A DNA stretch of 64,000 nucleotides from Escherichia coli (GTDB taxonomy: Bacteria; Pseudomonadota; Gammaproteobacteria; Enterobacterales; Enterobacteriaceae): assembly GCF_050320075.1 (NCBI RefSeq), contig NZ_CP190018.1; one strand, given 5' to 3'. The translations under genes and the position numbers were made by a program. Every line of letters starts with the position of its first letter. Position 1 is the stretch's first letter. The notes under the pieces were generated by a model. It was not told the origin of the DNA. It searched no databases and saw only the letters and a program-made list of their open reading frames with translations. Below, in pieces: positions 4,501 through 52,929 of this stretch.

Positions 4501-5774
4501 CCTGGACGATAAGCCGGGAGCGTTACTTGCCACTGACTACCCTGACCGGTAATTTTGCCACCTTCAGCCAGTAATGACGGCGCTTCCCACTGCACATTTT
4601 TCAGTCCGTGTGTTGCTTTGCTGACCACAAGCCCCAGGGAAACCGTCTGACCGCCCTTACCTTCAATACGCTCAGGCAGAGCAATACGGATCACTTCAGA
4701 TTTGCGGTACTCAAGAACGATGTTGTTATTACGCTCAACCAGGTCATAGCGGCTGCCTGCCAGCATTCGACGCTCGCGAATGCTGTCTGTATCGAGTTGT
4801 TTTTGCAGAGGTTCGCCAATCCGATAATTAACTTCCAAGCCAAAGCGAGTGTCATTCTCACCACTCTTGCCCTGCTTATGCCCGGCACTCAGGGTCAGAA
4901 GAGGCACTGGCGTGTAATTCACTTCAGCGGTAATCGCATGTGGATCTTTCTGGCGTTTATCTTTGCCAAACAGCCCGACTTCATCGCCATAATACTGCTC
5001 ATACATCAGGCTTGCGCCAAGCTGCGGCCAGGCGGGTAAATAGCCCTCAGCACGAATATCCCAGCCATTCGCCGGGCGTTCCTGATAATCCTCAACATCC
5101 GGCGATTTTTTCCAGCCAGAAGCCCGGATATAACCATTGGCGCTCAATTTCAAATAATCACGCCAGTATTCCGCACCAACACCAATGCGGGTATGACTAC
5201 GGGATAAATCATGGTCGATAAAGGTGTTCACCCCCGCCATCCAGTCATTTCCTGAAAAATGACGCCAGCCAAAACCAATATTTGACTGAGTACGATCGTC
5301 GGTACGATGTATTGCCCCCTGAGTGAACAACATATTTGTCGGTGTATCATAAATCGGATAAAGCATTTCCAGCGAAGAATCCTTCAGCGAGAAATCTTTA
5401 TCGACATTCAGTTTGACGCGCGCAGTACCGTATTTCCCGAGCCACTCCTGAATTTCCTGGTTAGCTTTAGCGGTGGCCATTCCGGTAATAAAGTTACGTG
5501 TCGCATCGCTATCTGGCTGACTGCTTAAAAATGTCCCGGCATTTGCGGCAAACGACGCGACATTTTTCTCCACATTATTATCAGCAGCTACTGTGGTATT
5601 TTCCATGCTCAAACGTGGCTGAACCGCATGCTGCGCACGTGCTGCCATTACTGGCGTAAAGGTGACAGCGAGTGGAAAAAGAACCTGAACAGAGATATTT
5701 GCCCACGCCACGCAGCGGGCCAGAACTGAATAACGAAATCGTGGTTGTTTATGACCTGTTTTATAACGTGACAT
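1524..5774 (-). CDS. eaeH: intimin/invasin-like outer-membrane adhesin with repeated Big (bacterial Ig-like) domains, 1416 aa
   Basis: 1416-aa ORF; N-terminal signal and beta-barrel region, then many ~90-aa Thr/Val/Ala-rich Ig-like repeats; length and position match full-length EaeH/FdeC. Confidence 0.9.
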   Translation of the reverse strand: MSRYKTGHKQPRFRYSVLARCVAWANISVQVLFPLAVTFTPVMAARAQHAVQPRLSMENTTVAADNNVEKNVASFAANAGTFLSSQPDSDATRNFITGMATAKANQEIQEWLGKYGTARVKLNVDKDFSLKDSSLEMLYPIYDTPTNMLFTQGAIHRTDDRTQSNIGFGWRHFSGNDWMAGVNTFIDHDLSRSHTRIGVGAEYWRDYLKLSANGYIRASGWKKSPDVEDYQERPANGWDIRAEGYLPAWPQLGASLMYEQYYGDEVGLFGKDKRQKDPHAITAEVNYTPVPLLTLSAGHKQGKSGENDTRFGLEVNYRIGEPLQKQLDTDSIRERRMLAGSRYDLVERNNNIVLEYRKSEVIRIALPERIEGKGGQTVSLGLVVSKATHGLKNVQWEAPSLLAEGGKITGQGSQWQVTLPAYRPGKDNYYAISAVAYDNKGNASKRVQTEVVITGAGMSADRTALTLDGQSRIQMLANGNEQKPLVLSMRDAEGQPVTGMKEQIKTELTFKPAGNIVTRTLKATKSQAQPTLGEFTETEAGVYQSVFTTGTQSGEATITVSVDGMSKTVTAELRATMMDVANSTLSANEPSGDVVADGQQAYTLTLTAVDSEGNPVTGEASRLRLVPQDTNGVTVGAISEIKPGVYSATVSSTRAGNVVVRAFSEQYQLGTLQQTLKFVAGPLDAAHSSITLNPDKPVVGGTLTAIWSTKDANDNPVTSLTPEAPSLAGAAAVGSTASGWTNNGDGTWTAQITLGSTAGELEVMPKLNGQDAAANAAKVTVVADALSSNQSKVSVAEDHVKAGESTTVTLVAKDAHGNAISGLSLSASLTGTASEGATVSSWTEKGDGSYVATLTTGGKTGELRVMPLFNGQPAATEAAQLTVIAGEMSSANSTLVADNKTPTVKTTTELTFTVKDAYGNPVTGLKPDAPVFSGAASTGSERPSAGNWTEKGNGVYVSTLTLGSAAGQLSVMPRVNGQNAVAQPLVLNVAGDASQAEIRDMTVKVNNQLANGQSANQITLTVVDSYGNPLQGQEVTLTLPQGVTSKTGNTVTTNAAGKADIELISTVAGELEIAAAVKNSQKTVTVKFNADASTGQANLQVDTAVQKVANGKDAFTLTATVEDKNGNPVPGTLVTFNLPRGVKPLTGDNVWVKANDEGKAELQVVSVTAGTYEITASAGNDQPSDAQTITFVADKATATVSGIEVIGNYALADGKAKQTYKVTVTDANNNLLKDSEVTLTASPANLALDPDGTATTNEQGQAIFTATTTVAATYTLTAKVEQADGQESTKTAESKFVADDKNAELAASPERVDSLVADGKTTATLTVTLMSGVNPVGGTMWVDIEAPEGVTEADYQFLPSKNDHFASGKITRTFSTNKPGTYTFTFNSLTYGGYEMKPVTVTINAVPADTEGAEEK

Positions 5775-6324
5775 TGAGATAATTTCCTGATGAACGAATT
5801 AACGAACATAGGCAGACACAAATAATGGCGTCTGCTTGTCAGAAAAACCGGGGATTTCCCGGTTTCCTTTTCCGCAGAAAAGGAAATACCTTTATGTAAG
5901 AAAGTACACCGCCACCTAATATATCCAGTGTCTGTAGCCACTCATCAGGTGGTTGGGCGCGGGATTATATTTTTATTTATGGGTAAAAATTTAGCTTTTT
6001 GTGCAAGTTATTAAATAGATACTTAAGTTATATTTCTTACTCTGCGGGCAGTGAATAATTCATTATTAAGAGTGAATAATAATGACCCGTCTTTAATTAA
6101 CTGCTATTGGGAGTACGTCGAAGTGAGTATATACGCCAGGATAAACCAATATATTTTTTATGGACATTCATTTATATTCATCGGACTGTAAATTCCGGGG
6201 ATATCGAACTTGCACGACTAATCTCAACCCTCAAACAGATTTATGAATTTTGTTCATAACCCCTGACAAATCCTGCCGTCTAATCGAGCTTTTCCCTTTA
6301 CGTTATGCTTCTCATGAACGATAA

Positions 6325-9248
<2,924 letters not shown>

Positions 9249-27214: not shown

Positions 27215-28168
27215 ATGTCATACTCGCTTTTTGACAAAGACGAGCACTGGCATAAGCCAGAGCAGGCGTTTCTCACCGATGACCACCGGGCCATTCTGCG
27301 CTTCGCCGTAGAGGCGCTAATGTCCAGTAAAGGAGCGGTGCTGGTGACGCTGGTGGAAATACGCGGCGGCGCGGCGCGCCCGCTCGGGGCGCAGATGGTG
27401 GTGCGCGAAGATGGTCATTACTGCGGTTTTGTCTCTGGCGGCTGCGTGGAGGCCGCTGCCGCTTTTGAAGCGCTGGAGATGATGGGCTCAGGCCGCGATC
27501 GCGAAATTCGCTATGGTGAAGGTTCGCCGTGGTTTGACATCGTTCTGCCCTGCGGCGGTGGGATCACGCTGACGCTCCATAAACTACGCTCGGCACAACC
27601 TCTGCTCGCCGTGCTGAACCGCCTGGAACAGAGAAAACCGGCGGGTCTGCGCTACGATCCGCAAGCACAATCGTTGGTGTGCCTGCCCACGCAAACCCGG
27701 ACGGGCTGGAATCTCAATGGCTTTGAGGTGGGGTTCAGACCATGCGTCAGGCTGATGATTTACGGACGTTCTCTTGAGGCGCAGGCAACCGCGAGTCTTG
27801 CAGCAGCCACAGGCTATGACAGCCATATCTTCGATCTTTTTCCGGCCTCAGCCAGCGCTCAGATCGATACCGATACGGCGGTCATTTTGCTGTGCCATGA
27901 TCTCAACCGGGAACTGCCAGTGTTGCAGGCCGCGCGAGAAGCAAAACCCTTTTATCTCGGCGCATTGGGCAGCTATCGAACCCACACTTTACGTCTGCAA
28001 AAGCTCCACGAGCTGGGATGGTCCAGGGAGGAGACAGAGCAAATCCGGGCACCTGTCGGGATATTCCCCAAAGCCCGGGATGCGCATACTCTGGCCCTTT
28101 CCGTACTGGCAGAAGTCGCCGCTGTACGTCTCCGTCAGGAGGATTCATGCCTGCCCCCATCGTCCTGA
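27215..28168 (+). CDS. paoD: XdhC-family molybdenum-cofactor insertion chaperone
   Basis: 317 aa; XdhC/CoxI-type sequence; immediately downstream of the Mo subunit. Confidence 0.9.
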   Translation: MSYSLFDKDEHWHKPEQAFLTDDHRAILRFAVEALMSSKGAVLVTLVEIRGGAARPLGAQMVVREDGHYCGFVSGGCVEAAAAFEALEMMGSGRDREIRYGEGSPWFDIVLPCGGGITLTLHKLRSAQPLLAVLNRLEQRKPAGLRYDPQAQSLVCLPTQTRTGWNLNGFEVGFRPCVRLMIYGRSLEAQATASLAAATGYDSHIFDLFPASASAQIDTDTAVILLCHDLNRELPVLQAAREAKPFYLGALGSYRTHTLRLQKLHELGWSREETEQIRAPVGIFPKARDAHTLALSVLAEVAAVRLRQEDSCLPPSS

Positions 28169-44043: not shown

Positions 44044-44778
44044 ATGTCTGACCACACTATCCCTGAATATCTGCAACCCGCACTGGCACAACTGGAAAAG
44101 GCCAGAGCCGCCCATCTTGAGAACGCCCGCCTGATGGATGAGACCGTCACGGCCATTGAACGGGCAGAGCAGGAAAAAAATGCGCTGGCGCAGGCCGACG
44201 GAAACGACGCTGACGACTGGCGCACGGCCTTTCGTGCAGCCGGTGGTGTCCTGAGCGACGAGCTGAAACAGCGCCACATTGAGCGCGTGGCACGCCGGGA
44301 GCTGGTACAGGAATATGACAATCTGGCCGTGGTGCTGAATTTCGAACGTGAACGCCTGAAAGGGGCGTGTGACAGCACGGCCACCGCCTACCGGAAGGCA
44401 CATCATCACCTTCTGAGTCTGTATGCAGAGCATGAGCTGGAACACGCCCTGAATGAAACCTGTGAGGCGCTTGTCCGGGCAATGCATCTGAGCATTCTGG
44501 TACAGGAAAATCCGCTCGCCAACACCACCGGCCATCAGGGCTACGTCGCACCCGATAAGGCTGTCATGCAGCAGGTGAAATCATCGCTGGAACAGAAAAT
44601 TAAACAGATGCAAATCAGCCTCAGCGGCGAGCCGGTTCTCCGGCTGACCGGACTGTCAGCGGCAACACTTCCGCACATGGATTATGAGGTGGCAGGCACA
44701 CCGGCACAGCGCAAGGTGTGGCAGGACAAAATAGACCAGCAGGGAGCAGAGCTTAAGGCCAGAGGACTGCTGTCATGA
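44044..44778 (+). CDS. sid: P4 Sid-type capsid size determination (external scaffold) protein
   Basis: 244 aa from the internal Met (MSDHTIPEYLQPALAQLEKARAAH...), coiled-coil rich; followed by delta and psu. Confidence 0.85.
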   Translation: MSDHTIPEYLQPALAQLEKARAAHLENARLMDETVTAIERAEQEKNALAQADGNDADDWRTAFRAAGGVLSDELKQRHIERVARRELVQEYDNLAVVLNFERERLKGACDSTATAYRKAHHHLLSLYAEHELEHALNETCEALVRAMHLSILVQENPLANTTGHQGYVAPDKAVMQQVKSSLEQKIKQMQISLSGEPVLRLTGLSAATLPHMDYEVAGTPAQRKVWQDKIDQQGAELKARGLLS

Positions 44779-45275
44779 TTTACTGCCCGTCGTGTGGACA
44801 TGTTGCTCACACCCGTCGCGCACATTTCATGGACGATGGCACCAAGATAATGATTGCACAGTGCCGGAATATTTATTGCTCTGCGACATTTGAAGCGAGT
44901 GAAAGCTTTTTCTCTGACAGTAAAGATTCAGGAATGGAATACATTTCAGGCAAACAGAGATACCGCGATTCACTGACGTCAGCCTCCGGCAGTATGAAAC
45001 GCCCGAAAAGAATGCTTGTTACCGGATATTGTTGTCGGAGATGTAAAGGCCTTGCACTGTCAAGAACATCGCGGCGTCTGTCTCAGGAAGTCACCGAGCG
45101 TTTTTATGTGTGCACGGATCGGGGCTGTGGTCTGGTGTTTAAAACGCTTCAGACCATCAACCGTTTCATTGTCCGCCCGGTCACGCCGGACGAACTGGCA
45201 GAACGCCTGCATGAAAAACAGGAACTGCCGCCAGTACGGTTAAAAACACAATCATATTCGCTGCGTCTGGAATGA
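44775..45275 (+). CDS. delta: P4 Delta-type late transcription activator (tandem Ogr-like zinc fingers)
   Basis: 166 aa; two CxxC...CxxC zinc-finger units (MIYCPSCGH...CRNIYC and YCCRRCKG...CTDRGC). Confidence 0.9.
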   Translation: MIYCPSCGHVAHTRRAHFMDDGTKIMIAQCRNIYCSATFEASESFFSDSKDSGMEYISGKQRYRDSLTSASGSMKRPKRMLVTGYCCRRCKGLALSRTSRRLSQEVTERFYVCTDRGCGLVFKTLQTINRFIVRPVTPDELAERLHEKQELPPVRLKTQSYSLRLE

Positions 45276-45348
45276 GGGCTGCCGGTTAACACCGGCCGTC
45301 GCCGCACACCGTATTTTTATTCTTCAGCATGATGAGAAAGAGATAACG

Positions 45349-45921
45349 ATGGAAAGCACAGCCTTACAGCAGGCCTTTGACACCTGTCAGAATAACAAAG
45401 CAGCATGGCTGCAACGCAAAAATGAGCTGGCAGCGGCCGAACAGGAATATCTGCGGCTTCTGTCAGGAGAAGGTAGAAACGTCAGTCGCCTGGACGAATT
45501 ACGCAATATTATCGAAGTCAGAAAATGGCAGGTGAATCAGGCTGCCGGTCGTTATATTCGTTCGCATGAAGCCGTTCAGCACATCAGCATCCGCGACCGG
45601 CTGAATGATTTTATGCAGCAGCACGGCACAGCACTGGCGGCCGCACTGGCACCGGAGCTGATGGGCTACAGTGAGCTGACGGCCATTGCCCGAAACTGTG
45701 CCATACAGCGTGCCACAGATGCCCTGCGTGAAGCCCTTCTGTCCTGGCTTGCGAAGGGGGAAAAAATTAATTATTCCGCACAGGATAGCGACATTTTAAC
45801 GACTATCGGATTCAGGCCTGACGCGGCTTCTGTGGATGACAGCCGTGAAAAATTCACCCCTGCGCAGAACATGATTTTTTCGCGTAAAAGTGCGCAACTG
45901 GCATCACGTCAGTCTGTGTAA
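45349..45921 (+). CDS. psu: P4 Psu-type polarity suppression / capsid decoration protein
   Basis: 190 aa; last gene of the sid-delta-psu operon, followed by cos. Confidence 0.85.
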   Translation: MESTALQQAFDTCQNNKAAWLQRKNELAAAEQEYLRLLSGEGRNVSRLDELRNIIEVRKWQVNQAAGRYIRSHEAVQHISIRDRLNDFMQQHGTALAAALAPELMGYSELTAIARNCAIQRATDALREALLSWLAKGEKINYSAQDSDILTTIGFRPDAASVDDSREKFTPAQNMIFSRKSAQLASRQSV

Positions 45922-46085
45922 AATTCCCCGAAAATCCGCCTGTTTTTACTGAAAAAAGCCATGCATCGATAAGGTGCATGGCTTTGCATGCGTTTTCCTG
46001 CCTCATTTTCTGCAAACCGCACCATTCCCGGCGCGGTCTGAGCGTGTCAGTGCAACTGCATTAAAACCGCCCCGCAAAGCGGGCG

Positions 46086-46104
46086 GGCGAGGCGGGGAAA
46101 GCAC
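46086..46104 (+). other. cos cohesive-end sequence of P2/P4 type
   Basis: GGCGAGGCGGGGAAAGCAC matches the 19-nt P2/P4 cohesive end as I recall it; position just downstream of psu fits P4. Confidence 0.65.
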
Positions 46105-46122
46105 TGCGCGCAACAATGATGA

Positions 46123-47517
46123 TTATGATTTCATTTTATCTGCAATATCTTCTAAGGAATCAAAGAATGCTTTGACAAAGTTGTCTTTATTAACAGTAGT
46201 AAAGTTTTGATTGTAAAATCCTACACATGCAGAAAAAATTGCTCTGCAAGTTAGCTCATTATATTTAGATGAATATAATGGTTCGACTCCACGATACACG
46301 GACCAAGAACCATGAGCTATATCAGACCTAGTCTTATACATTTCCTGAGCCACTCTAGCCCATTTTTTTTCATCTTGATAATAAATAGAAACTAATGAAG
46401 AAACACGACTTACGAAGTTCTTTGTTGTAGATGAATCCTTTTTTTCGCTACTTAGACTAACCAGCCGTTCAAGAGCCGTTGTTAATTTTACTATACGAGA
46501 ACTTTCATCCTTATCCTGTTGTGCGCTACTAAATAAATAGATAGCATCAATTAGCCTGTCTGCAATTACAGAGTTTTCATGAGGTTCTATCGCCAACTCT
46601 ATTAACCGAGAAAGAACTAACCCTAAGTCAGATTTGTAATCATCTTCAAACTTATTCCAAAACTCACCGCTATTGGCTATAGTCCCTTTAGTTGAGTAAT
46701 GATAGTTAAACATTTCGTTTGGTTTCTTGGAAAGATAAAAGCCGTCATAATTTGGGTAAGGATCTGTTGATATACTTAAAAAGTATGGGGAGATATTATA
46801 GTGCACACCAAATAGCTGTAGTATCCCAACCACAAAACATGCAATATTTTTAGCGATTCTCTGCCTACTTAACTTAGAGCGTTTGCTAACAGGGATTTTT
46901 AGGTAGTGTTTATAATGAAATTTATGAGAAGAACAAAATTTCTTAGCTAAATCAAGTTGTTGCTCAGTAAAATCATCACTAATAGTTAAGTGCATTTTTT
47001 CTGCCGATATAATATCAACTCGGCCAATAGACATTATATCTCGTTCCAACCCGTGAGCTAAAATAGGATAATAAAAATCCTCTTCAGACATTTCTCTCCT
47101 TGTTAGTTTTAATGTTTTATTTAGGAGGATAGTACATCCACTCCTGTCGCAACTGCCGTTCTCAACCCAAATATGCATAAACAATATTTTCTTAAGATTA
47201 CTTAAAAATTCATCGGTAGTAACTAGCATTTCTAAGCGATTTGATTTTATAAATCTAGCCGAAATAGCATATAACTTCTCATAAGAGGCATATGATAGAT
47301 GAATTTGAGTTCTAGAAAGATCTGTTCTTCCTTTTATTAGTTCATATGGTGCATCTATGGTCATTCCCAATGAACCAAAATTACCATTATATTCTTTTTT
47401 GTAAAATTCCATAAAATTAGATGAGGATGTTAACTCTTTATTTATTCTAACAGCCTCATCAAGAATAAATTTAAAATCTTTAACGTCTTCCAAACTGGCA
47501 CTCATCATTTTCACCAT
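46123..47517 (-). CDS. uncharacterised 464-aa protein in the P4 psu-int hotspot; C-terminal HEPN-like Rx4H motif; candidate anti-phage effector
   Basis: Strongly AT-rich versus the GC-rich flanking P4 genes; sits between cos/psu and int; C-terminal region contains RSDIAHG (R-x4-H-G, as in HEPN RNases); no Walker or other obvious motif; start overlaps the int 3' end. Confidence 0.7.
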   Translation of the reverse strand: MVKMMSASLEDVKDFKFILDEAVRINKELTSSSNFMEFYKKEYNGNFGSLGMTIDAPYELIKGRTDLSRTQIHLSYASYEKLYAISARFIKSNRLEMLVTTDEFLSNLKKILFMHIWVENGSCDRSGCTILLNKTLKLTRREMSEEDFYYPILAHGLERDIMSIGRVDIISAEKMHLTISDDFTEQQLDLAKKFCSSHKFHYKHYLKIPVSKRSKLSRQRIAKNIACFVVGILQLFGVHYNISPYFLSISTDPYPNYDGFYLSKKPNEMFNYHYSTKGTIANSGEFWNKFEDDYKSDLGLVLSRLIELAIEPHENSVIADRLIDAIYLFSSAQQDKDESSRIVKLTTALERLVSLSSEKKDSSTTKNFVSRVSSLVSIYYQDEKKWARVAQEMYKTRSDIAHGSWSVYRGVEPLYSSKYNELTCRAIFSACVGFYNQNFTTVNKDNFVKAFFDSLEDIADKMKS

Positions 47518-48685
47518 TTAAATTAATAATAAAATCACTATACCACTGCATCATTTTCTTTCGATCTTCTATATACTGTGCATGATTATATACACCACGT
47601 ATCGTGTTTTTATCCACATGAGCCAACTGCATTTCAATCCAAGCAGTATTAAAACCATTTTCATGGAGTATTGTTGATAATGTATGCCTAAATCCATGTC
47701 CTGTAAGTTTTCCCGCATAGCCTATGCGTTTGATAAGTTGATTAACACTTGCCTCACTCATAGGTTTGTTTGGATCATTCCGTCCCGGGAAAACATAACG
47801 ATAATTTCCTGTCATAGATTTAAGTTCATTAAGAAAGCCTAATACCTGGGTCGATAAGGGGACTAGGTGCGGCCTACGCATTTTCATTTTTTCGGCAGGA
47901 ATTTCCCAAATAGCGTTGTCCAGATCAAACTCTTGCCATAATGCCGCTCGCAACTCGATAGTTCTAACCCCAGTAACCATCAATAATTTTGTGGCAATCT
48001 GAACAAGTCGGCTTCCTGCATAACTATCTAAAGCACGCAGAAAATCAGGTATCTCATCTGATTTTAAGAAAGGAAAATGATTTGATTTGTGTACTTCGAG
48101 GGCACTGGACAGATCTGCCGCAGGATTAAACTCTGCTCTTCCGGTAGCAATAGCATATCGAAAAACCTCTGAGCAACGTTGCCGCACTTTGCGCATTTTC
48201 TCCAATGCACCACGTTTCTCAATTTTACGCAGCACATTTAGCAATTCTAGCGGTTTAATTTCCCCTACAGGCCTCGTCCCTACATACGGAAAAATATCAT
48301 TTTGGAACGCCTCAATAATATCTGAGGCATACCCAGCAGACCATTTTGCCGACTTCATCTGATGCCACTCTCTGGCAATCTTTTCGAATGCGTTCTCAGA
48401 TTGAATTCGTAATGCTAATTTTTGTTCTTTTCGAACCTCACTAGGATTTTTTCCCTCGGCCACTATTTTTCTGGCCTCATCACGGCGGGCGCGAGCTTCA
48501 GCAAGTGTGATCGTTGGATAAACACCAAGCGAGATCATTTTAGGTTTACCTGCATAGCGATAACGAAATCGCCAGCTTTTACTTCCATTTGGCTCTACAA
48601 GTAAAGACAACCCTTGCCCATCCCCAAGTGTATAGGCTTTAGCTTCAGGTTTAGCACGGCGAATCTGCATATCATTTAGGGGCAT
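47480..48685 (-). CDS. int: P4-type tyrosine integrase
   Basis: 401 aa; N-terminal arm-binding region (MPLNDMQIRRAKPEAKAYTLGDGQGL), C-terminal catalytic region (HGFRHT...YNHAQY); start faces the tRNA fragment 165 bp away. Confidence 0.95.
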   Translation of the reverse strand: MPLNDMQIRRAKPEAKAYTLGDGQGLSLLVEPNGSKSWRFRYRYAGKPKMISLGVYPTITLAEARARRDEARKIVAEGKNPSEVRKEQKLALRIQSENAFEKIAREWHQMKSAKWSAGYASDIIEAFQNDIFPYVGTRPVGEIKPLELLNVLRKIEKRGALEKMRKVRQRCSEVFRYAIATGRAEFNPAADLSSALEVHKSNHFPFLKSDEIPDFLRALDSYAGSRLVQIATKLLMVTGVRTIELRAALWQEFDLDNAIWEIPAEKMKMRRPHLVPLSTQVLGFLNELKSMTGNYRYVFPGRNDPNKPMSEASVNQLIKRIGYAGKLTGHGFRHTLSTILHENGFNTAWIEMQLAHVDKNTIRGVYNHAQYIEDRKKMMQWYSDFIINLNGENDECQFGRR

Positions 48686-48849: not shown

Positions 48850-48896
48850 TGGTGCCGATAATAGGAGTCGAACCTACGACCTTCGCATTACGAATC
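48850..48896 (-). tRNA. 3' fragment (~47 nt) of a thrW-type tRNA-Thr(CGU); attachment-site core, not a complete tRNA
   Basis: Minus strand reads GATTCGTAATGCGAAGGTCGTAGGTTCGACTCCTATTATCGGCACCA (anticodon loop with CGU through T-arm to CCA); the sequence 5' of it cannot form acceptor and D stems. Confidence 0.8.
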
Positions 48897-49126
48897 TGTA
48901 GCACCAATCATAACTATCTGTTTTAGCAAGCATTAACCGCATTCACCAAGCAATAGTTGATGGCACAAACAGAAAGTTGATGCATGATGTTGTCATGTGT
49001 ATGTCACAAATACGGCACAACGATCTTCAAACATGTAGCCACTCAGCATAGAAGAGCACAAAGCCTTGCAATCCAGTGCAAAGCTTTGTGTGTCTCAGTT
49101 TTGTTTCATCTGTAATTATGTGTTCG

Positions 49127-49429
49127 CTACGATGCAAGAATCCATACCGATAAGCATCCGATAATTGGGAAAGAAAAATCCAACAAACTTCCCACACCCC
49201 ACGCGCGCGGATCAAAACCGCCCCACCACGGCATATTCATACGCTTGCCATGCCCGAACATTTCAATCCAGCGATATTCTGCCTGGGTGTGTTCACGCGC
49301 AATGAAGAACGTACAACCGGCTATCGCACCGTAAGCCCAGTTTCCGGTAAAAAGACCAATCAGTAGCTGCGCAGCCACAGCACAAAGTGCATGAAGTAAG
49401 GGTGTTATATCCATTTTCATCCTACCCAA
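49127..49429 (-). CDS. hypothetical small membrane protein (100 aa) between the att core and oac
   Basis: ORF with two hydrophobic segments; function unknown. Confidence 0.4.
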   Translation of the reverse strand: MGRMKMDITPLLHALCAVAAQLLIGLFTGNWAYGAIAGCTFFIAREHTQAEYRWIEMFGHGKRMNMPWWGGFDPRAWGVGSLLDFSFPIIGCLSVWILAS

Positions 49430-49885
49430 TAAAACGGGGCGCTCGGCCCATTAATATTATTTAGACGCAAGCGCTGCCTCAATTGCAGATAACATTTGTC
49501 TTAATTCTGCGTTTTCTTCTTCCAGTGCTGTTATTCTGTCGTCTGACTCTCTGGCTACCTGAACAAGCAAGCCAGTAACACCAGAATAATCTACAGTGTA
49601 ATACCGTTCACCTTCTTCACCTAAAGGATGACAAAATCACATAAATAATTTAAAAATCATAGCATTAGATTACTTAATGATTAAATAATAGACTGCGAAA
49701 CGCGACAAAACACAACATATCCAGTCACTATGAATCAACTACTTAGATGGTATTAGTGACCTGTAACAGAGTATTAGCGCAAGGTGATTTTTTGTCTTCT
49801 TGCGCTAATTTTTTGTCAACGCACTGGGTTAGTTGAATTTACAACCATGCTCAGTTTGGTGATCTCTTTAGGTCGATTGTTATGG

Positions 49886-50926
49886 TTATGCTCTGCTTGA
49901 TTCAGTGATTTTGGAATCCTGCATTTTAGTAATCATACCCATAATTTTATGCCTAAGCTTTTCCATTGGGTTTTCGATTAGATAAAAACTTACCGCCCCA
50001 ACTAAGATTGATGCTACCATCGTTGCTATATACATATAGAAACTGATTCCTACGTACCACACACCCATTGCTAGAATCAGGAAGTGCCATAGGTATATAG
50101 AGAAGCTCCATTTACCAATGTAAGACATTAACGGTGTTGACAGAGCCCAAGCAAATACACCTTCTCCATAGCTCATTAGCAGAACAATGAGTCCAAATAT
50201 TGGCGCATAGAAAATAAATTTGTTGAGAACCCATCCATCAGTAAACCCACCAGTTAACTTCCACATAACTTTAGGCAGTGCAATAAGCATTGATACAATA
50301 AAGAACAGGAAGGCTATATCAGACAACTCTTGACCAATTTTAAGGAAATTATCGTGATAGAGAAATGCTGCAATCATTCCGCAAGCAAACAGTGGGAAAT
50401 ACCACATCACCATTCCGCCATACGCACTATCCATCGCAGGGTACAATCCCTGTAGCAATACAGCCAGTGCGAAAATAAGGAATGCCGCTGCTTTTCCATT
50501 GTACACTTTTTGAATTGCGACACCAGCATACGCAAAGAATGGAAGTATGAAGTAGAATTTATACTCAATTGGTATTGTCCAGAAATGAAGCACGGCCTCT
50601 TTCATCGTTATGATTGAGATTGCCGTATTCAAATCAAAATACCCAAAATATGAATACACGAGAACAGCTATTGCGAACACCGGAAGGATTCTCATTGTTC
50701 TTCCAAGGAAATAACTTAAAAGAGACCGCCAGGAAAATCCGGTAGAAATAAATCTACTGGTTAGCAAAAATGCGCTGAGAACAAAGAATATCCAAACGCC
50801 AAACTGTGAACTTCCACCAAGCATAACCTCATACTCATGAAAATATATTCCTGTAGCGTGGGCTATTATTACAAGGAATACCGCTATTGCCCTTAGTCCA
50901 TCAAGAGACTTGATTTTACCTTTCAT
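49886..50926 (-). CDS. acyltransferase-3 family O-antigen acetyltransferase (Oac-like serotype-conversion enzyme)
   Basis: Multi-pass membrane protein with N-terminal LDGLRAIAVFLVIIAH (acyltransferase-3 signature); AT-rich; directly downstream of the tailspike gene; start probably the internal Met. Confidence 0.8.
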   Translation of the reverse strand: MKGKIKSLDGLRAIAVFLVIIAHATGIYFHEYEVMLGGSSQFGVWIFFVLSAFLLTSRFISTGFSWRSLLSYFLGRTMRILPVFAIAVLVYSYFGYFDLNTAISIITMKEAVLHFWTIPIEYKFYFILPFFAYAGVAIQKVYNGKAAAFLIFALAVLLQGLYPAMDSAYGGMVMWYFPLFACGMIAAFLYHDNFLKIGQELSDIAFLFFIVSMLIALPKVMWKLTGGFTDGWVLNKFIFYAPIFGLIVLLMSYGEGVFAWALSTPLMSYIGKWSFSIYLWHFLILAMGVWYVGISFYMYIATMVASILVGAVSFYLIENPMEKLRHKIMGMITKMQDSKITESSRA

Positions 50927-51009
50927 TTCTTTCCCAGATATGGAGTGAACATCTGCGAAAATGTAGCACATTTCAAGGTAAACAAGAAGCGCATCCATGC
51001 GCATTTTCA

Positions 51010-52929
51010 TCACCCTGCCTTGGTGTATGTCCAGTTAAATGTTGTTGTTCCCTGGCTTGTGATGGTTACAATCCTTCCTGTCACTGTAAATGATATCAAC
51101 CCTCCTGACTTAAGCGGAGTTAAAGTAAGTGTTGTTCCGTCCCACATGGCAAGCTGAAGCGAAGAGAAATTTGTTCCACTGCTTTCTGCCCAAACGCTTA
51201 TCAGGTACATCCCTTGGCTATTTGGCAGTTCAAACAACGTAGTTGCTACGTTAGCTGCAACAGCCTGAGTTCCTTTCGCTGTGTACACTGCTGGCAACTG
51301 ATTACCTGCAGAGCTTCGTGATTCAACATATGAGCCTGAAGTTTGCGTCCCAGTTAATGAGCAGTCAGTAAATACTCCATTCCCTGTGCTGTAAGTTGAT
51401 ATTACAGGAGTCCCACCAGTCGGAGCCTTAAACCGGCATCCCTCAGCAATTATTTTTGCTGTTGAGTCTGTCAGCAATGTGTTTGGGTATCCAGAGCCAG
51501 TGTAGGTTATTGATTCGCTATCAAGGAAGCTATCGGTACTTGATTTTATGTTAACAATGCTTGTGCCTGTTGCAAAGATAAATGCTGCTGTCCCACTCCC
51601 CGTTGTTTGCATTGAGTTTCCATGCCCGGCCAATCCTGATATATGGGCAATAGTATCATTAAGTTTTATATACGACGCAGTAATTCCATTTGTATTTTTT
51701 ATTATATTAGACTCACCATCATACCCTGTAATAGTAAGACACTTACATCCAGAAAAATATAACCCTGAGGAATCAAATGTATATTGCGACCCGTCAACTG
51801 TGATCTGGTCTCCTGCACAGTTTATTAGCTGAGGAGACAGGCAATTTACAACATACCATGCCTGTGCTGCATCCAGCACATAACATGTATCCCACTGTAT
51901 TGTCGTTCCGTTCGCCTTATAGAAACCATGCGCAACTCTCCTCGCCCATACCTGGGTATACTTTGTTAGGTAATTTCCAGAGTCATCATATATGGCCCAC
52001 CATGCACCATCAACCTCAACATTTTTAATGTGCATAACGCCTGGTGAAGTAGTTCCTCCATCAATTAGAATGCCAATTTTACCATCATTGCCAGTAGGTG
52101 ATGTAGGGCGTCCTCCATCGTAAAAAATATAGACATTTTCAATATTTATTGTATTAAACGCTGCGTGGTAATGGAAACAAGCTATATTTCCTATTACTGC
52201 TATGAAAGTTTCCGGCCTATTTATGTTGCTGTTTGTTTCGCCATTTATTGTGCAGTTTGAATTCATCTCTATCGTTGCATTTACGAAGTAAGTTCCAGAT
52301 GTCAATAATACATTCCGCCCTGTATTAATTGCGGCCTGTATGCCTGCATAGTCAAGAGACTGAGTTAGTGATGTTACGAATGGATAAACAGCCTGCGCCG
52401 CTGATAGTGTGGAGAATTTCTCGCTGAGTGGATGCAGAGTTCCGTCAGCTGTTGCACCGAAATCCTTGGCTGAAATGAAGTTGGTATTTTTATCATGTTG
52501 AGTTAAAGCTATTGAGCCGATATATGGCTGCTTAACTGCAACTAGTGCATCTCCCATTCCATCAGCATCGCTTTCTAACTGCTGCTTAAACTGATCAGGG
52601 TCATACTTCAGCACATTAGGAAAATAGAACTGCTGTGCACCATACGCATCATATACAGCCATAGAATGGCCTTGCACAGTTACGAACTTGGCAATCTGTC
52701 CGTTATATACAGGGTAACCAGCGGCGTTAATGATGATTGGTTGCGAAACAGGAACGTGAGAGCCGTCTTCGTTCTCTACATAAACCTGAATCTGGTTTTC
52801 TGGATTTACTGGGTCCGTGTCAATTTTACCGATATAAATTTTGCCATTGGCAACCGCTTTAAAAGAACGCGCCATAGTGAAGAGTTGCGAAGGCATGCTT
52901 ACCACAACATTTGCGGTGATATCTGACAT
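51010..52929 (-). CDS. tailspike protein: P22-type head-binding N-terminal domain with a different, AT-rich receptor-binding body
   Basis: From the internal Met: [43 protein letters not shown]... closely resembles the P22 gp9 N-terminus; remainder is Ser/Thr/Gly/Asn-rich and AT-rich. Confidence 0.85.

Follow-up and report, generated by a model that had tools for sequence, protein, structure and literature searches.

The window analyzed here is a stretch of 64,000 nucleotides of Escherichia coli DNA, and the locus in question lies on its minus strand, inside a P22-like prophage and close to one of its ends. Read along that strand, a P22-type tailspike gene (51010..52929) is followed by a gene for an oac-type O-antigen acyltransferase (49886..51010; Acyl_transf_3, 1.1e-23), which sits immediately upstream of a relic consisting of a sib/tI hairpin, ATTAGCGCAAGAAGACAAAAAATCACCTTGCGCTAAT (49773..49809), and an attP P arm of the HK022/lambda type (49630..49772) that carries an arm-type-like sequence, CAGGTCACTAATAC, at 49750-49763. 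The P arm runs into the C core-type Int-binding site of an HK022-type attP, ATCCTTT (49623..49629), the 7-bp overlap AGGTGAA (49616..49622), and a B'-like half-site, GAAGGTG (49609..49615). The latter belongs to a tail fiber pseudogene stub (49457..49621), beyond which lie an intact ORF of 95 amino acids, here called ORF95 (49127..49414), and the 46-nt 3' part of thrW (48850..48895), which is the attR core of the prophage.

Direct reading of the minus strand gives an open frame of 59 sense codons (49636..49460), directly preceded by an in-frame TGA (49639-49637) with attP DNA upstream of it, and closed by TAA at 49459-49457; a second in-frame TAA lies at 49453-49451. The first five codons (F C H P L, 49636-49622) are att DNA. 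The stub proper starts with GGT (49621-49619) and reads GGT GAA GAA GGT GAA CGG TAT ... TCT AAA TAA, that is, 54 codons (GEEGERYY...ALASK) and the stop. The first-pass annotation had reported an orphan frame of about 58 codons between the att core and oac, spanning 49447-49620, with an in-frame stop just upstream and no ATG or GTG. The frame is real, its quoted peptide is exact, the upstream stop is there, and the position between the thrW core (48850-48895) and oac (49886-51010) is correct. Its 5' end falls within one or two bases of the point where homology starts (49621/49622), whereas its 3' end does not hold, the stop having been placed at 49447-49449, 10 nt too low. The remark on start codons is essentially right, as the sole in-frame ATG (49495-49493) stands 12 codons ahead of the stop.

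Several observations bear on whether this frame is a gene. The ORF listing of the window contains, for the stub, only a 37-aa ORF with a TTG start (49457..49570), and no Shine-Dalgarno-like sequence is visible by eye upstream of that TTG. A promoter and terminator scan found no promoter-like site above background on the stub strand, and folding of the spacer between the stub and ORF95 gave nothing above background (z = -0.37). The length of the frame alone is weak evidence, a run of 59 open codons having a chance of (61/64)^59 ~ 0.06; it is because of homology, and not of open-frame length, that the stub is taken as a real gene remnant. It retains 54 of 346 codons and lacks its own start and ribosome-binding site. 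In the near-identical genome NZ_CP123240.1, RefSeq PGAP labels the equivalent of window 49457-49621 'tail fiber domain-containing protein; incomplete; missing N-terminus'. The stub is thus a non-functional remnant, an ordinary pseudogene that RefSeq had flagged already, and nothing indicates a current function: there is no start, no visible ribosome-binding site, no promoter-like site, and the S74 region of its parent protein is gone.

The parent gene was identified by PHROGs and DNA homology, for which Pfam was insufficient: a Pfam search with the stub alone gave no S74 match, and what it did return, such as SIKE and bZIP_2, was coiled-coil noise below the threshold. Against the phrog_4563 profile, the stub aligns to positions 293-346 of 346 with an E-value of 7.3e-29, and the profile search also aligned it to the C-terminal ends of other tail fiber families. 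A megablast of 49100-49900 against phage genomes found many lambda-like phages that match only from 49622 downstream, and a single P22-like record, ON470589, that is 99.9% identical throughout. For phage Tritos, DNA identity is 96.2% from window position 49622 to 49175, with none upstream of 49622. The matching Tritos segment is the 3' end of the gene for a 346-aa 'tail fiber protein', TRITO_21 (gp21, CAH1234791.1), followed by 42 nt and then an ORF of 97 amino acids. Intact ends of this tail fiber gene occur in about 651 of the 5,426 complete E. coli genomes; the stub DNA is 96-98% identical to intact genes, the closest allele reaching 98.2%. The earlier proposal, a surviving C-terminus of a gene that had lost its 5' part, is borne out by these homologues, which end in the same way, and a random open frame is excluded by the phrog_4563 match together with the 96-98% DNA identity.

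Tritos gp21 carries Peptidase_S74 (PF13884) at residues 227-278 (E 4.8e-14), and its residues 215-327 align weakly to the chaperone-bearing end of S16 gp37 (PDB 6F45). The S74 domain with its autoproteolytic Ser-Lys site is absent from the stub, which starts at residue 293; the C-terminal helical segment of the chaperone domain is present, as judged from the alignment to positions 293-346 of phrog_4563; and the upstream fiber domain and a translatable gene are both absent from the locus. By homology, then, the stub is the C-terminal 54 residues of a lambdoid-prophage side tail fiber protein and corresponds to the terminal helix of the S74 intramolecular chaperone domain, which fits the coiled-coil guess of the first-pass annotation. 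It resembles the intact protein in that the last 54 residues are the same save for one R-to-M change, and in that the same 42-nt spacer and small ORF come next. It differs in lacking residues 1-292, with the fiber body and the S74 region, in lacking a start codon, and in sitting as a pseudogene in a podovirus that has no such fiber.

That small ORF, ORF95, belongs to phrog_1443 (E 3e-54) and had no match in Pfam, NCBIfam or PADLOC; lambdoid phages have it next after the tail fiber gene. It came along with the stub in the transfer, is intact and conserved, and may be the selected cargo. By eye it looks like a small hydrophobic membrane protein in a moron-like position. ORF95 lies att-proximal both in lambdoid prophages, where it follows the tail fiber gene, and in P22-like phages, Gally having the order tailspike-ORF-sib-attP.

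The upstream boundary of the stub falls in an att core. The attB recognized by HK022 consists of 21 bp in the order B-O-B', exchange takes place within the 7-bp overlap O, and the overlap has to be identical in both partners (PMC7736782); this site lies between torS and torT (PMC6814406), and its canonical sequence, known from oligonucleotides, is GCACTTTAGGTGAAAAAGGTT (PMC5512741). On this basis (PMC7736782, PMC5512741), the overlap of the window core was placed at AGGTGAA. The window reads gtcATCCTTT AGGTGAA GAAGGTGaac (core 49629..49609); HK022 and Gally attP read ATCCTTT AGGTGAA TAAGTTG; the canonical attR beside torT reads ATCCTTT AGGTGAA AAAGGTT; and the intact tail fiber gene of Tritos and VR50 reads GATCGGA AGGTGAA GAAGGTG. 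The C site is identical in HK022, Gally, and the canonical attR of EC190329 and PSJ-23. The interval between oac and the stub is 260 nt long, and its sib and P arm match positions 173-382 of HK022 X51962, which are annotated there as sib (the 'sib transcription processing site') and attP, at 86.9%; the same interval matches lambda 27534-27708 at 84.7%.

Both parental homologies meet in these seven bases. Homology to the P-arm parents stops at the overlap, an apparent six further bases being due to the resemblance of canonical B' to the tail fiber sequence, and homology to the tail fiber parents begins at the first base of the overlap. The 21-bp site in the tail fiber gene, GATCGGAAGGTGAAGAAGGTG, would qualify as a putative secondary attB, with an overlap matching at 7/7 bases, a B' half-site (GAAGGTG versus the canonical AAAGGTT) at 5/7, and a B half-site (GATCGGA versus GCACTTT) that matches poorly. 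The switch of homology within AGGTGAA appears to be the signature of an integrase-mediated exchange between attP and a secondary attB, and the stub is, judging from the letters of the junction, most likely the outer (B') side of an HK022-type attR, now a fossil, that arose when integrase acted at a secondary site. The idea that the 5' part was lost by module exchange therefore stands as to the exchange but not as to a breakpoint left undefined, for the truncation coincides to the base with the 7-bp core overlap of an HK022-type attP. The suggested comparison with intact P22-like prophages has no counterpart to work on, as none of them carries the parent gene at that position; the gene comes from lambda-like siphoviruses.

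The scar can be set beside the HK022 attR found at torS/torT. The two are alike in the sib hairpin, the P arm, the C site ATCCTTT and the overlap AGGTGAA, with 86.9% identity to HK022 and 99.9% to PSJ-23. They are unlike in that the B' flank of the scar is tail fiber coding DNA (GAAGGTGAACGG...) in place of AAAGGTTGAGTCGC on the torT side, and in that the scar lies inside a phage genome, without a partner attL and without an HK022-type int. The sib hairpin is kept downstream of oac though the int that it regulated is lost. A T-run follows this hairpin on the plus strand and would be predicted to terminate transcripts arriving from the stub side, not oac transcripts. A further side observation concerns EC190329 (NZ_CP142949.1), whose lambdoid prophage occupies the HK022 site at torT with a tail fiber gene about 0.9 kb from its own attR: this allele (5990-6010) reads TGGAGAA where Tritos and VR50 read AGGTGAA, and the secondary site is absent. 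As a single case, this could be avoidance of self-recombination, or chance.

The scar is not an end of the present prophage. In NZ_CP123240.1, the prophage spans about 38.9 kb and is bounded by the 46-nt thrW core, with the second copy of the 46-mer in a complete tRNA-Thr beside int; the phage genome therefore encloses the scar, with attR about 560 bp away. ARAGORN found no complete tRNA in the window, where thrW is represented by the 46-nt att core only. In tandem at this core, right after the P22-like prophage, lies a P4-like satellite (window ~44775-48685, -/+) with int (47480-48685), psu (45349-45921) and ogr/delta (44775-45275). Between psu and int lies the gene (46123-47517) for a HEPN-domain protein of 464 amino acids, which shares 38 nt with int; the protein shows a weak Apea-like HEPN match (E 0.028), with no hit in PADLOC. 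The psu-int interval is a frequent location of defense genes in P4-like satellites.

The scar junction was found in 6 of the 5,426 complete E. coli genomes, in the phage record ON470589 and in one IMG/VR contig, and was absent from one-genome-per-species representatives. The scar is thus rare. The junction, together with a diagnostic ATG codon in place of AGA, is common to every copy examined, which indicates a single origin; the stubs differ by 0-2 changes per copy. The phages that carry it have three different tailspike genes (1,920, 1,983 and 2,073 nt), have oac or lack it, and occupy three integration contexts: thrW, argW/intS and the dacD side. The argW arrangement is explained by the location of attP between int and xis in Sf6/HK620-type modules (bioRxiv 10.1101/2021.04.09.439263). 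In PEC41 (NZ_CM168023.1, ~5197), what surrounds the scar is a P22-like remnant with heavy deletions, in which the tailspike adjoins early genes and dacD is nearby; its overlap is mutated to AGGTAAA, consistent with a site no longer used. The 'complete genome' ON470589.1 (vB_EcoP-611R6; region 4869-7270) ends in argW (tRNA-Arg) and host yfdC and hence includes host flank.

Both parental arrangements exist today. The PSJ-23 prophage, at the canonical HK022 site, has the order Arc-tailspike-oac-sib-attR-torT and is 99.9% identical to window 53100-49610 over 3,491 bp, diverging at the overlap; its tailspike has the same protein accession as that of the window-like genome. Gally, likewise P22-like, carries int and attP of the HK022 type (also PMC9928086). 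As for the second parent, thrW is occupied in Nord1 and N39 by lambdoid prophages that end in the order tail fiber-ORF95-thrW core, and in mEp213 the tail fiber genes adjoin a thrW-type attP. Three lambdoid siphoviruses, HK446, HK542 and mEp213, have integrases 99% identical to that of the window-type prophage. The match of the latter to HK022 Int is local and reaches just 25%.

Secondary-site integration and the formation of lambda-bio-type specialized transducing phages are established lambda genetics, and the arrangement here resembles their products: it probably arose by recombination of an HK022-type attP with a secondary attB in a lambdoid tail fiber gene, followed by genome recombination that left a P22-like phage carrying the scar. 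A P22-like phage of the order tailspike-oac-sib-attP(HK022 type)-int would have met a lambdoid phage or prophage whose tail fiber gene offered the same seven overlap bases, AGGTGAA, next to GAAGGTG as a B'-like half-site. Int-mediated exchange between attP and the 21-bp tail fiber site GATCGGAAGGTGAAGAAGGTG would yield ATCCTTTAGGTGAAGAAGGTG and GATCGGAAGGTGAATAAGTTG junctions, and with them the order P arm-ATCCTTT-AGGTGAA-GAAGGTG-(last 54 codons)-ORF95. The collinear lambdoid genomes would then recombine in shared early-region DNA, in the manner of a lambda-bio-type capture of the DNA to the right of attR, and this second recombination would strip away the virion genes of the resident phage and the int-xis of the incoming one. 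The product would be a P22-like phage with its own virion genes up to the scar and the integration module of another phage (thrW here), in which the stub, ORF95 and the orphan P arm and sib ride as passengers between oac and the thrW attP.

The likeness to lambda-bio-type phages lies in the retained P-O-B', in the DNA kept from the right of the integration site, and in the loss of the phage's own int-proximal segment. The differences are that the captured DNA comprises the tail fiber end of another phage, a small ORF and, by our reading, an integration module rather than bacterial genes, and that the scar phage would be a viable hybrid with a new integration specificity, produced by a capture whose mechanism we reconstruct from its outcome. 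We infer that Int catalyzed the junction from the letters of the core, and the steps after the Int exchange, with their order, are set out as the course that such a phage could have followed. These later steps are plausible because modules of both parental types, those of Gally and of Tritos, occur together in LF82, and because hybrids of P22-like and lambda-like phages arise in it spontaneously (PMC9928086). In the Galper1/2 hybrids of LF82, too, the partners are a P22-like podophage of the HK022 site and a lambda-like prophage that shares its cell; they are named as Gally-Perceval hybrids with two recombination endpoints (PMC9928086). The scar junction here lies at an att core. The flanking modules have since been reshuffled, as the three tailspikes and three integration contexts attest, and this has blurred the order of the later events and the donor of the thrW module.

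The same tail fiber remnant could also have been cut off without integrase, by rare illegitimate or microhomology recombination during a mosaic exchange that gave the same sequence, the coincidence with the att core being fortuitous or driven by the short homology. This is in essence the view of the first-pass annotation. What the two parents have in common at the junction is just 7 bp (13 of 16 bases when the canonical B' flank is counted), the left half-site of the putative secondary attB (GATCGGA for GCACTTT) would make a weak substrate, and the reciprocal junction, in which the 5' part of the tail fiber gene would be joined through O to P' and int, was found in none of the 5,426 E. coli genomes and in no metagenome contig; the single IMG/VR hit came from an unrelated phage and proved to be fortuitous. 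None of the genomes and contigs searched thus shows the original integrated state; on the Int-mediated history, this junction is expected to have been lost. Against a break independent of Int, both homologies break off precisely at the borders of the overlap, the stretch where strands are exchanged by HK022 Int (PMC7736782), whereas a random break in the roughly 330-bp spacer between oac and int would fall within these 7 bp in about 2% of cases, and far more rarely across the 39-kb genome; moreover, the target has a B'-like half-site (5/7), and the P arm and C site are kept intact. We consider this alternative unlikely, but with more than a token claim on the data.

Two other readings fare worse. 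The junction is built like an attR (P-O-B'), and our initial hypothesis was that an HK022-type integrase had placed the present prophage in the tail fiber gene of a resident prophage, the stub being host-side DNA. This was dropped on the evidence that 46-nt thrW repeats bound the prophage and that a thrW-type integrase, with nothing beyond the 25% local match to HK022 Int, sits beside the full tRNA. The window contains no P' arm, none of the 5,426 genomes fuses the tail fiber 5' part to P', and the scar accompanies the phage at argW, on the dacD side and in viral contigs, so that current integration at this site is scarcely credible. A small protein with a function of its own, still made from the stub, is very improbable, too; it could be the product of the 37-aa TTG ORF (49570..49457), acting as an unattached coiled-coil or chaperone helix. 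The frame is still open, its 37 codons are unchanged save for one synonymous site in all scar copies examined, and an automated pipeline called it a CDS, the 'tail fiber protein' of ON470589.1. This call is spurious: the frame has no ATG or GTG start, no visible ribosome-binding site precedes the TTG, no promoter-like site lies on the strand, PGAP calls a pseudogene, and both the S74 region (residues 227-278) and the whole fiber that it would serve to fold are gone. The conservation is due to recency, the flanking non-coding DNA being equally conserved at 99-100%. The Int-mediated origin of the scar remains the reading that we prefer.

The new part of this work is the placing of the breakpoint at an att core, the pseudogene itself having been annotated by RefSeq. 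The 5' boundary of the stub would be a base-precise fossil of a hybrid att site of the HK022 type, with a gene of another phage on its outer side. A bolder extension, which we hold to be a long shot, is that the AGGTGAA tail fiber site is a real and recurrent secondary attB for HK022-type phages, one at which integration disables the fiber gene of a competitor and which offers a regular route for swapping integration modules between podoviruses and siphoviruses; if true, the orphan attR, with its P arm, C site and overlap intact, would be a live substrate for the Int and Xis of co-resident HK022-type prophages. For annotators, the 37-aa 'tail fiber protein' CDS should be treated as spurious in other records like ON470589. 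For the phages, at least one mosaic joint of P22-like podovirus and lambda-like siphovirus DNA would have a concrete mechanism, in which site-specific recombination at a secondary att site comes first and an exchange between collinear genomes second. This would also account for how such a phage could move its integration site from torS/torT to thrW or argW.
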